Virus record (IMG/VR): IMGVR_UViG_3300022181_000105
Coordinates: 1-52,020 of that record
DNA from: a virus
Taxonomy: Duplodnaviria; Caudoviricetes
Length of the DNA stretch: 52,020 bases
Direction: 5' to 3' (one strand)
Within the stretch, counting starts at the first letter, position 1, and every line of letters begins with the position of its first letter. Below, in pieces: positions 896-3,681 of the stretch. The notes beneath the pieces are model-generated. The model was not told where the DNA came from, ran no database searches, and saw nothing but the letters and a program-made list of their open reading frames with translations. The position numbers and the translations under genes are program-made.

Positions 896-1492
896 TTACT
901 CAAATTTTATGGATATGAGTTTCCATTGCCCATTTCCGACGTATTGAACCTCCGCTTCGAAATACTTTCTAATTTCTGCGCCGAAAGCATTTTGAGCATC
1001 AACGTAAGAAACAACTTTCCAAGTGCGATTCCCCATATCGGTGAAATGCGCATTCCATATCCAGGGAAACTTTGCAGTACTTGGAGATCGAAGCCGTTCT
1101 TCGACGAATCCCTTCGCCCACACATAAGCGCCACCCTCCGTGTCTTCTCTAGGTGGAGACGTGTCTACTCTTGGGGCAGGAGCAGATGTTGCTTTTGGTA
1201 CTGGCGCTACTGCTACAGGTTCTCCCCTAAAGGAATCGATCCATCTTGAAGCGACTGGGTAGAATACGAGGAAGAGGGGGATCATCAAAACCGCAGCGAA
1301 GATAGACATGGCCTTACTTTCGCTGATAAGGATCTTTGCTTTTTTTTCAGACGGGGGTTCTGTCGCGGCTATGGCCGACAAAAGATCAAAGTCGGGGCCT
1401 TCGCGGACTATTCTTTTCACGAGTTCATCCTTTTGTTTTTGTGAAAGTCCGGATTCTCGTACTTGCTGAATCAAAGAGTCTATTGACGGCAT
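896..1492 (-). CDS. Single-pass membrane protein (superinfection-exclusion candidate)
   Basis: TM segment IFAAVLMIPLFLVFYPV, Pro-rich linker, C-terminal LRSPSTAKF...VDAQNAFGA domain of a kind common beside phage repressors. Confidence 0.75.
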   Translation of the reverse strand: MPSIDSLIQQVRESGLSQKQKDELVKRIVREGPDFDLLSAIAATEPPSEKKAKILISESKAMSIFAAVLMIPLFLVFYPVASRWIDSFRGEPVAVAPVPKATSAPAPRVDTSPPREDTEGGAYVWAKGFVEERLRSPSTAKFPWIWNAHFTDMGNRTWKVVSYVDAQNAFGAEIRKYFEAEVQYVGNGQWKLISIKFE

Positions 1493-1516: not shown

Positions 1517-2263
1517 TTAAGGTCTGTGATCAAGTTCCAAATCCGCTTTTACGATTTTCCCTCTGACGTGAACAAAGTCAACCTCTATATCCTCTTCTGT
1601 ATATCCAAGCGCTCGTCCATCCGAGGAAAGCAATTTCCCCCCTGCGCCTGGGCGAGGATAAATTTTCTTAATTACAGGGTTACCGTTTATTTCTACCAAC
1701 ACGATGTCCCCAGGCTTTATTTCTGCGGCGGGATTGACTATTACAGTGGTGTCTGGTGGTATGCCAAAGTCGACCATGCTGGTCCCGTCTGTCGATATCG
1801 CGAAAGGGGGCCTGTATGGATCGATAGGTCCCAGCTTTTGCTCCGCTATAACCTCGAAATCCAAAGAATCGAGATCCGTTACATCCCCATAAGCAACCCC
1901 CACACCGCCACAGTGAGCGGTGTATTCCACGGAAATCTTTGGAACAAACACAAGAGAATTTAGAGCAAAGAGCCCTCCCGGCAATCTCCGAAAGGATTGC
2001 ATGGCATTTATAAGCGCTGGTTTTGTTTTATCATTTTTGTCTACGCGAGCTTCCGGTAAAACCAAATCCTCCAAAGAGATGTCCAGCGCCTGCGCAATGG
2101 CTTCCACGTCTTTCACAGAAGGAGACGTAATCCCCCTTTCCCACCTTCTTATGGTGTCACGAGAAAGTTTTCCTCCCCGAATACTCATCACCTTCTCGGC
2201 CAATACCTCTTGCGACATATCCCTTTTAGCCCTGCACAATTTGATGCGCTCCCCCACATCCAT
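1517..2263 (-). CDS. cI: CI-like phage repressor (XRE HTH + S24 peptidase)
   Basis: N-terminal HTH (MSQEVLAEKV...TIRRWERGITSP); C-terminal DGTSM (catalytic Ser) and VIKK (catalytic Lys); divergent from cro. Confidence 0.92.
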   Translation of the reverse strand: MDVGERIKLCRAKRDMSQEVLAEKVMSIRGGKLSRDTIRRWERGITSPSVKDVEAIAQALDISLEDLVLPEARVDKNDKTKPALINAMQSFRRLPGGLFALNSLVFVPKISVEYTAHCGGVGVAYGDVTDLDSLDFEVIAEQKLGPIDPYRPPFAISTDGTSMVDFGIPPDTTVIVNPAAEIKPGDIVLVEINGNPVIKKIYPRPGAGGKLLSSDGRALGYTEEDIEVDFVHVRGKIVKADLELDHRP

Positions 2264-2305
2264 GGTTTCGCCCCCTTTGCGCCCCCACAGCGCTCAATGC
2301 ACATA

Positions 2306-2421
2306 ATGTGGCATAAACAACGCAAAAAAACAAGAAGCAAAAATACAACCGCAAATGCTTTATTTTTACGGCATTTGATTCTTAAGCCCTATTGATGTTG
2401 CAAAAAACAACGCATTATAAT
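2306..2421. promoter_or_regulatory. cI/cro switch: PR-like promoter and candidate operators
   Basis: TTGATG(2392-2397)-N18-TATAAT(2416-2421); imperfect repeats ATGTGGCATAAACAACGCA (2306-2324) and ATGTTGCAAAAAACAACGCA (2395-2414), weaker third copy ~2334-2353. Confidence 0.65.
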
Positions 2422-2448
2422 GACCTCAGAACGGAAGGGGGTGCAAAA

Positions 2449-2700
2449 ATGAAGCAAACGACTCTGGCGAATTTTAGGAGAGAGGCAAAATTAAGCCAAA
2501 AAGAAGTTGGAGAGCGCATAGGAAGGAGTAGAGATTCTGTGCGTCGGTACGAACACATGGAGGTTGAGTTGCCTTCAAGCGCAATTTCTATTCTTGCGGA
2601 ACTATACGGAAAAAGCGAGATGGAAATTCTTCGAGCCAGCCTAAACCCTCCTCCAGCCCCCGTGAAACCGGGGGAGCGGTCAAGTTCCAAGACGGCGTAG
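2449..2700 (+). CDS. cro: Cro-like XRE HTH regulator (83 aa, short form)
   Basis: LSQKEVGERIGRSRDSVRRYE HTH; RBS GAAGGGGGTG; divergent from cI. Confidence 0.88.
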   Translation: MKQTTLANFRREAKLSQKEVGERIGRSRDSVRRYEHMEVELPSSAISILAELYGKSEMEILRASLNPPPAPVKPGERSSSKTA

Positions 2701-2873
2701 AGGAGGCGAAAGCGTTCAAGGCCGTGGCGGCGGAGTGCCTGCCGATCTTCGTCGACCATAGCGAGTTTCTGGAGTTCATCCTCGACCTGGCGGACAACGG
2801 CAAGATCGACGAACCGGTACGACGGATGAAGGTTGAGCGACTCAGGGACGCGTTGACGGAGGCATTGATATAG
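2643..2873 (+). other. Candidate -1 ribosomal frameshift site and -1-frame extension of cro (long form ~141 aa)
   Basis: In-frame X_XXY_YYZ heptamer A_AAC_CCT (2643-2649), 7-nt spacer, hairpin CCCCCG-TGAAAC-CGGGGG (2657-2674); -1 frame open to TAG at 2871-2873 with phage-like codons and no well-placed start. Confidence 0.55.
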
Positions 2874-2988
2874 ACCCACATGGACAAAGCGAGAGATAGC
2901 CCACCCGGCAGTACGGTCGGCGATGAACGCCAAGCTCTTGCCTACAACTGAATAGAGGTACTCAGCTTTTTGAAAGGAGGCATAGAAA

Positions 2989-3219
2989 ATGCTCGTAATC
3001 ACAACGGATGGCGAAGTATTGGACGGAAAGAGTTCTCTTACGGGAAGAGAAATTGCTGCCGTCGTTCTTCTCAGGGAGGACGGCAGCGAGGATCTCAAAG
3101 AACGGTTGGAAATCAATATTCTTCCTCGGATGAGGGATACATCTCCCTCCGAGCTTCTGTCGTTGGGCGAGGATTGCTTACGTAAATATCGCAACCGTCA
3201 CCCTTTGCAGAGTGCATAA
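2989..3219 (+). CDS. Small hypothetical protein
   Basis: Strong RBS AAAGGAGG before ATG; 3' end overlaps a competing minus-strand ORF (3113..3358). Confidence 0.5.
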   Translation: MLVITTDGEVLDGKSSLTGREIAAVVLLREDGSEDLKERLEINILPRMRDTSPSELLSLGEDCLRKYRNRHPLQSA

Positions 3220-3408
3220 CACCCACGACGTCATAGCACGTGTTCTCCACCTCGACAATCTCCCCTTTTCTGGGCATCTGGGCAAAGACTCCTGTTCCAA
3301 GGTTGCTGGAAGACCCTGACGAGACGTCGATCAGTATCGGCTTATGTATTGGAATCACCTCCCTTCACCGGGGGATGGAAAAAGCATAGCACGAAAGGAG
3401 GTCGCCGC

Positions 3409-3681
3409 ATGACCGTAGAACTCTTGGAATCCATACGCAGCTCCCTGATCGAGCTGACCGATCTCGTCGAGACCGCGACGCGCTCCGAGCCTCGCCTCAT
3501 GGATGAAACGGAGGCGGGGCGCTACATCGGAATGTCCACGGCGTACCTGCGGAAAGCGCGGTGCGAGGGCAGCATCGGAGAGCGCACGCAGGCGCCGGTG
3601 CATCTGAAGATAGGGAACGCGGTCCGGTACGACAAGACGGACCTGGACCGATGGATAGACGAGCAGAAACGACACAGATAG
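3409..3681 (+). CDS. Excisionase/AlpA-like winged-HTH protein
   Basis: LMDETEAGRYIGMSTAYLRKAR...KIGNAVRYDKTDLDRWI; RBS AAAGGAGG. Confidence 0.8.
   Translation: MTVELLESIRSSLIELTDLVETATRSEPRLMDETEAGRYIGMSTAYLRKARCEGSIGERTQAPVHLKIGNAVRYDKTDLDRWIDEQKRHR

Follow-up and report, generated by a model that had tools for sequence, protein, structure and literature searches.

Sequence conservation at the end of a Synergistota phage cro gene points to programmed -1 frameshifting into a small helical domain

Phage, host group and switch region

The window analysed here is the whole virus record IMGVR_UViG_3300022181_000105 with a length of 52,020 nt. Integrase, terminase, head and tape-measure genes are present on these 52 kb, which hence represent a temperate tailed phage. 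Its host group is the anaerobic Synergistota bacteria. A Synergistaceae MAG that was fetched independently contains the cro region unchanged (100% protein identity), and positions 2449-2873 show zero indels in the contigs of 4/4 runs wherever these contigs cover them. The layout of the cro junction described below is therefore not an assembly error.

A cI-like repressor gene of 248 aa, consisting of an HTH and a peptidase S24 domain, is located on the minus strand at 1517-2263 (phrog_4, E 5e-25; Pfam HTH_3 and Peptidase_S24). Divergent from it, cro is a small HTH gene and the first gene of the early lytic operon (2449-2700, plus strand, ATG 2449 to TAG 2700), with Pfam HTH_31 on residues 5-56 (E 1e-8). 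It is preceded by a candidate sigma70-like promoter at 2392-2421 (plus strand, TTGATG-18-TATAAT, 10/12 matches to the consensus); the consensus scan returned 2 sites compared to 1.0 expected, which makes this candidate a weak one. From gene position only, the cro product would be expected to bind the operators of the switch and to repress cI.

RNA contigs of four runs cover cI and positions 3005-3624, with cro and the junction located outside this coverage, and one RNA-library piece of 151 nt spans 2721-2871. A related phage is represented by RNA-library contigs of 903 nt and 912 nt (runs X9 and X14) that include its DLADNG region, corresponding to window positions 2782-2817. Their depth is above that of the window's own pieces, and they may be DNA carry-over. 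Inside the early lytic operon an 81-aa gene is found in antisense orientation (3113-3358, minus strand; phrog_24992, E 1e-10), overlapping 2989-3219 on the plus strand. Like cI and unlike cro, its stretch is covered by RNA contigs of 3/4 runs, a pattern that a lysogen-expressed gene might show. Rfam yielded zero matches within 2200-3450.

Layout of the cro junction

All features of the junction are located on the plus strand. The cro codons CTA AAC CCT (Leu65-Asn66-Pro67) set the heptamer A_AAC_CCT in the frame of the gene as a putative slippery site (2643-2649). It is followed by a spacer of 7 nt (2650-2656) and a predicted stimulatory hairpin (2657-2674) with a 6-bp stem CCCCCG/CGGGGG and a 6-nt loop. 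Past Pro67 the 0 frame continues for 16 aa as a Pro-rich tail, resulting in the short, 83-aa HTH protein. The -1 frame, which is open already from 2568 (101 codons), runs on for 74 codons to a TAG at 2873. Read after a shift, it would contribute a linker PSSSPRETGGAVKF (2646-2687) followed by a 61-aa domain with the motif DLxDNGRID (2688-2873), leading to a product of 141 aa. The cro stop TAG (2698-2700) is located on a Val codon (GTA) of the domain, and the first ATG, GTG or TTG of the -1 frame is GTG 2724, 17 nt behind an AGGAGG at 2701-2706. The preliminary description, which had proposed a programmed -1 frameshift giving a short and a long Cro, is accurate in the elements that it names and in both isoform lengths.

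In the window alone this layout does not exceed chance level, because XXXYYYZ heptamers occur 466 times on both strands and the hairpin has a z-score of only -1.49, with 18 of 200 shuffled sequences folding equally well. With 6 bp and z between -0.6 and -1.5, the hairpin of the window is a modest one, which counts against the frameshift reading. On sequence comparison, it is the relatives that strongly provide evidence beyond chance for the layout of the cro junction.

Positions 2643-2676 are also present in a different cro gene (record 7 of run X18). The shared stretch comprises 34 nt only, with 3 differences, and is followed by a similar tail. Since nothing but these 34 nt is shared, the cassette of heptamer and hairpin may be a joint at which HTH modules recombine.

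The -1 frame behind cro

Related-phage contigs of four runs carry 8 substitutions within 2732-2861. All of them are synonymous in the -1 frame (8/8), compared to 3/8 in frame 0 and 0/8 in +1. Within cro itself (2526-2640) 5/5 variants are synonymous in frame 0. The dual-coding stretch 2641-2720 is free of variants in the same contigs. Two adjacent bases are changed at 2721-2722, with a non-synonymous result. By this substitution pattern, the -1 frame behind cro is coding.

An ancestral fused gene broken by a frameshift mutation would likewise leave a domain in another frame, either as a decaying remnant or as an assembly error. Fused forms do exist, and broken copies were found in four loci (L014, L034, L039, L046). 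A decaying remnant is however at odds with the substitutions just described, and the break is -1 in 22/22 split loci (see below), always at the same motif. Furthermore, the same letters are read in the independent MAG and in several runs. Conservation refutes this explanation, and we assign a negligible probability to it.

As a single protein, the extension finds matches in 12/268 Synergistota genomes. Used as a profile, the domain is found in 22/268 of these genomes and, in addition, in 7 viral contigs. AlphaFold predicts three helices with a mean pLDDT of 92, based on an alignment of 16 rows. Searches of Pfam (over cut-off), the PHROG families and the PDB sequences returned no match for the domain. 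Foldseek gave none at E 0.001, the best VIA Z of 5.8 being among generic helical pairs. The Atlas offered no usable match either, and the fused protein P0021 retrieved HTH clusters only. The label "CII-like", which had been considered for the extension, is not backed by any family or fold match; the best hint is phrog_101 with E 0.031 in 1/16 domain members. EF-hands consist of a 12-residue loop with ligands at positions 1, 3, 5, 7, 9 and 12 and usually occur in pairs. The motif DLxDNGRID resembles such a loop, with one loop in the model and EF-hand_5 reached under the cut-off by 1/16 members (E 0.012).

Queries derived from the window itself retrieved little. A single-protein scan with the -1 ORF found zero relatives in viral and metagenome contigs, and tblastn found none in GenBank phages. 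Cro alone resulted in one weak match and, among proteins, in itself only, and a back-translated pattern of the Cro tail matched 0 viral contigs. As a control query in the phylum, Cro returns only 2/268 genomes and is thus weak as a census.

The slippery site in related loci

In total 37 distinct domain matches were collected, eight of which were set aside (seven without an HTH above 10 bits and one at a contig end). The remaining 29 comprise 22 loci in which the domain lies in -1 relative to the HTH (frame 0), 6 loci fused in frame and none with the domain in +1; the last one is the second piece of the broken copy L046. The split loci are of Synergistota and viral origin. A divergent HTH gene (at least 20 bits) is located upstream in 15/22, so that most of them are cro by position. 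Their HTH domains have a median identity of 29% and form 20 clusters at 60%. As the split loci share ancestry, the following counts do not represent independent events; the cassettes of L048 and L049 are identical and the domain of L046 is broken.

The heptamer A_AAC_CCT is in register in 20/22 split loci, the other two showing G_GAC_CCT and T_TGC_CCT. The core C_CCT is common to all 22, with sites chosen by C_CCT in the first place. For this reason the analysis was repeated without site choice, by counting all 7-mers in the overlap windows: AAACCCT ranks first (20/22), and the best unrelated 7-mer reaches 7. The wobble base in front of AAC is an A under Leu, Ala, Ser, Thr, Glu, Gly, Val, Pro and Lys. 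Since these are nine different amino acids, the constraint acts on the nucleotide. As background, A_AAC_CCT was found in 4 of 142 Asn-Pro pairs from long ORFs of the same loci, non-coding strands included. Codon use in the HTH region amounts to 34% AAC for Asn and 39% CCT for Pro.

From the site to the domain, the -1 frame is free of stops in 22/22 loci (369 codons). Stops are present in 16/22 loci for an equal length upstream and in 5/22 for the +1 frame. In two loci the heptamer immediately follows a -1 stop; in two others the 0 frame terminates 15 and 24 nt after CCT, within the hairpin loop. The shift site is bracketed by these two kinds of stops. An SD-like stimulator 6-17 nt upstream of the site, optional in this family of signals, is seen in only 3/22 loci; the further testable features of bacterial -1 frameshift signals are all present in the cassette.

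The same fusion protein, with the same need for an open -1 frame, would result if RNA polymerase slipped in AAACCC or in a C/G run of the hairpin and added a base, the long form then being made by normal translation. The hairpin arms do contain C and G runs of 4-7 nt. The runs at the site itself however consist of merely 3 A and 3 C, and slippage-prone runs are usually much longer than 3 nt. Slippage 3' of the hairpin is excluded because of the 0-frame stop in the hairpin loop in two loci. Moreover, the motif is tied to the codon register (20/22), which a polymerase does not need. Polymerase slippage thus appears very improbable to us.

Conservation of the hairpin

The stem begins 4-7 nt after the site in 21/22 loci and encloses loops of 5-39 nt. 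The 40 nt following the site fold with a mean z of -2.17 (21/22 below zero), compared to +0.09 for the upstream control. Across 27 distinct cassettes the arms covary. A 5' arm CCCTG is paired with CAGGG in 12/14 cassettes, whereas a 5' arm CCCCG is found together with CGGGG in 7/9 and with CAGGG in 0/9. In an alignment-free test on the 27 cassettes the 5' arms fit their own downstream sequence by 6.9 nt and that of other cassettes by 5.7 nt. This own-arm complementarity lies above 20000/20000 permutations, in a test that shared descent can inflate. RNAalifold predicted zero consensus pairs for a plain alignment of 23 cassettes, since loops of 5-39 nt misalign the 3' arms; the covariation refers to our own anchored and alignment-free tests. 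In line with what the preliminary description had expected of homologues, these retain the heptamer in register, the hairpin and the open -1 frame.

Start codons in the -1 frame

Translation of the domain as a separate small protein would be the consequence of termination-reinitiation, either at the codon overlapping the cro stop or at GTG 2724. Heptamer and hairpin would then serve another role, such as pausing or antitermination. Indeed, the cro stop overlaps the first Val/Ile codon of the domain at the same place in 15/22 loci, an arrangement required by reinitiation and not by frameshifting. Of the 22 loci, 12 have ATA, 2 GTG and 2 CTG as the -1 codon that overlaps the stop, and gene callers record a 49-aa protein starting from GTG 2724.

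In 5/22 loci, including the window, this codon is however GTA and in 1/22 CTA, neither of which is a start codon, and an SD-like word 4-16 nt upstream is present in just 5/22. The stops of L011 and L052 are located as far as 38 and 47 nt before the domain. No ATG, GTG or TTG at all is found between the last -1 stop and 30 nt into the domain in 15/22 loci, and in 7 of 11 split loci examined the first such codon lies beyond mid-domain. GTG 2724 is not conserved among the relatives, and a start at this position would cut the first predicted helix. The Val/Ile on the cro stop may be explained by the protein, because fused proteins keep Val/Ile there. Reinitiation furthermore leaves the in-register heptamer, the stop-free linker and the linker match of P0027 (see below) unexplained. 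We consider it an improbable route to the domain.

In-frame fusions and modularity of the cassette

Firm in-frame fusions of HTH and domain are represented by three loci (L013, L016 and L035), all without the motif in register; three more are weak partial matches. The firm fusions L013 and L035 (2/3) also keep GTA-G at the position equivalent to the stop. On the protein level, eight sequences of 137-153 aa (P0021, P0023-P0029) contain HTH and domain in one frame, including P0029 as the protein of L016 and the near-identical P0027 and P0028. P0027 (11 members, 98 contigs) has a linker that agrees in 17/24 residues with the one read in the -1 frame of L011. What is predicted as a trans-frame product is hence also encoded by an ordinary gene, and the search for homologues fused in frame was successful. 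In a tree of the domain (61 columns, 11/28 forks open) split and fused forms interleave with 7 changes, at least 3 of which are forced by well-supported branches.

A search starting from the motif resulted in 31 matches in 23/268 genomes, and 29 distinct ones were examined. In 16/29 cases an HTH gene ends with the motif in its own register, and seven of these cases are new. The other 13/29 are without HTH and were taken as chance matches, a reversed control pattern yielding 8 matches. Six of the new cassette genes possess -1 extensions of 75-114 aa, and one is cut by the contig end. Behind two of the new cassettes the extension is a diverged form of the domain (10-15 bits). Four other extensions behind the same heptamer-hairpin cassette (L109:1501-1806, L110:1183-1521, L122:1180-1521 and L103:1294-1521; 76-114 aa) have no PHROG match, and three of them align mutually and form a second family. 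Comparison of the domain with this second family using hhalign gave a probability of 1.1, and a relation is thus not shown. As judged from these loci, the cassette is modular and precedes other -1 domains too.

A boxA-like motif behind the domain

After the stop of the domain, a boxA-like motif CTACAACTGAATA is present at 2942-2954 (plus strand) as a possible nut-type antitermination site. With up to 2 mismatches, the motif TGACAAYYGAATA, which resembles boxA, is found within 130 nt of the domain stop in 12/22 split and 3/6 fused loci; in L057 it is located at about 1353-1365 (minus strand). It also occurs between the spacer tRNAs and the 23S rRNA in genome G031. The motif after cro looks like a Synergistota boxA, by analogy to the nut-type antitermination site of lambda.

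Proposed decoding mechanism

The comparison supports the frameshift reading in that heptamer, hairpin, open -1 frame and fusions are found and a conserved start at 2724 is absent. On these grounds, the end of cro very probably directs programmed -1 ribosomal frameshifting, which gives rise to an 83-aa and a 141-aa Cro. Most ribosomes would produce the 83-aa HTH protein and a minority the 141-aa protein with linker and three-helix domain. A ribosome paused by the hairpin would hold AAC in its P site and CCU in its A site. Here tRNA-Pro(GGG) would exchange its wobble pairing on CCU for full pairing on CCC, and tRNA-Asn would come to pair with AAA through two of its three bases. The step from AAC CCU to AAA CCC may be a tandem or an A-site slippage. 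The invariant core would be C_CCU, with a P-site codon that keeps at least the match of its first base (A_AAC, G_GAC, T_TGC). The window itself encodes no tRNA. A sequence pattern for tRNA-Pro matched 0/5 genomes; the tRNAs of one genome were then listed directly, and this genome (G031, with three cassettes) encodes tRNA-Pro GGG and tRNA-Asn GUU.

Heptamers with C at the Y positions had been put forward as non-canonical. This caveat turns out to be weaker than stated, as C_CC.U is one of the six shift-prone E. coli tetramers reported at least four times over background in PMC4066793. According to the same source, three heptamers proved negative with the IS3 pseudoknot, A_AA.C_CC.U not being one of them, and cognate re-pairing in the A site is the main rule. 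CCN motifs and heptamers with purine X and pyrimidine Z are described there among the weaker ones in E. coli. The efficiency of the shift is probably low, a few percent or less, because CCN motifs are weaker than AAN and UUN motifs in E. coli.

Selection has kept the signal in HTH genes with less than a third of residues in common, and a role in the lysis-lysogeny switch is therefore indicated. The added domain would oligomerise, with the long Cro binding operators of the cI/cro switch cooperatively and more tightly. The self-association assumed here has its model in the C-terminal domains of phage repressors. The shift would in turn set the amount of cro transcription needed to commit to lysis, and phages with a fused gene would make the long form only. 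We give even chances to an oligomerising domain that tightens operator binding and tunes the commitment to lysis, the weakest step of the proposed mechanism.

Relation to known systems

A -1 frameshift in a phage cro gene has a counterpart in the Lactobacillus casei phage A2, where it was seen upon decoding in E. coli (Escobedo et al. 2014, via PMC5009743). The shifted A2 product is 12 aa shorter and is called "apparently irrelevant to infection in L. casei" in PMC5009743. In contrast to this account of A2, the Synergistota shift would add a conserved domain of ~60 aa, with phylum-wide conservation of site, hairpin and open frame. Within the portions of the literature available to us, A2 is the only cro precedent found.

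A shared N-terminus and a minor, C-terminally extended -1 product are also described for the tail assembly chaperone gpG/gpGT of lambda and the capsid or tail extensions of T3, T7 and A2 (PMC5009743), and for the Ig-like extensions of phages the coexistence of fused and shifted forms (PMC5009743). As portrayed there, the former serve virion structure or assembly and use other motifs, whereas the Synergistota case concerns a switch gene with CCU in the A site.

FseA (msi172-msi171) of ICEMlSymR7A is likewise a mobile-element regulator that arises by trans-frame fusion (4-13%), and variants with one ORF and with two ORFs both occur naturally (PMC4755241). Its shift has been proposed to damp noise in the switch (PMC4755241). 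In the description of PMC4755241, FseA differs from cro in that the ribosome shifts by +1 on UUUC, helped by a G-rich stimulator located upstream, and in that it belongs to an ICE and not to a phage. Moreover, the DNA-binding part of FseA resides in the second ORF (PMC4755241), while both Cro products would carry the HTH.

Signals of the IS3-family/dnaX type, X_XXZ_ZZN, resemble the cassette by an in-register heptamer, cognate re-pairing in the A site and a hairpin 4-10 nt downstream with G-C as first pair (PMC4066793). IS elements mostly use A_AAA_AAR, however, and A_AAC_CCU is outside the 21 patterns of the genome search as given in PMC4066793. Compared to the rules in that source, the variants G_GAC_CCU and U_UGC_CCU relax the requirement for the P site.

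GeneTack (PMC3711429) included 2 Synergistetes genomes, and its main text is without XRE or helix-turn-helix genes. The training set of PRFect (PMC10885494) consists, by its description, mostly of tail chaperones. Our literature search, with most subscription papers outside its reach, found no report of the cassette or of frameshifting in Synergistota phage regulators.

A portable joint in a decision gene

Overall we lean, by a small margin, towards a broader reading in which the portable A_AAC_CCU and hairpin cassette is a modular joint at the end of cro, by which a helical domain, one of several unrelated ones, is attached to the HTH at a fixed low ratio. The switch would run on two Cro isoforms with their ratio set by tRNA-Pro decoding, and lineages would tune it by swapping the domain or by fixing the fusion. 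If true, ribosomal frameshifting that is selected and phylum-wide would be seen here for the first time in a phage decision gene. Frameshifting in phages is otherwise found mostly in structural genes, and conserved prokaryotic cases beyond IS elements and virion genes are few. The cassette would also offer a natural signal based on CCU in the A site, for which the variants and fusions found in nature are ready controls.

For annotation, the frameshift reading means that Synergistota prophages are misannotated at this place, the domain being called as a truncated orphan of 45-76 aa or missed. Several genomes contain 2-4 cro cassettes or domain copies (G031:C1:1083000-1088300, G239:C2:82500-83700, G234 on C42 and C64, G243:C54:26100-26900). 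Some of these are 0.5-5 kb apart and some are broken, which suggests stacked or exchanged immunity modules.
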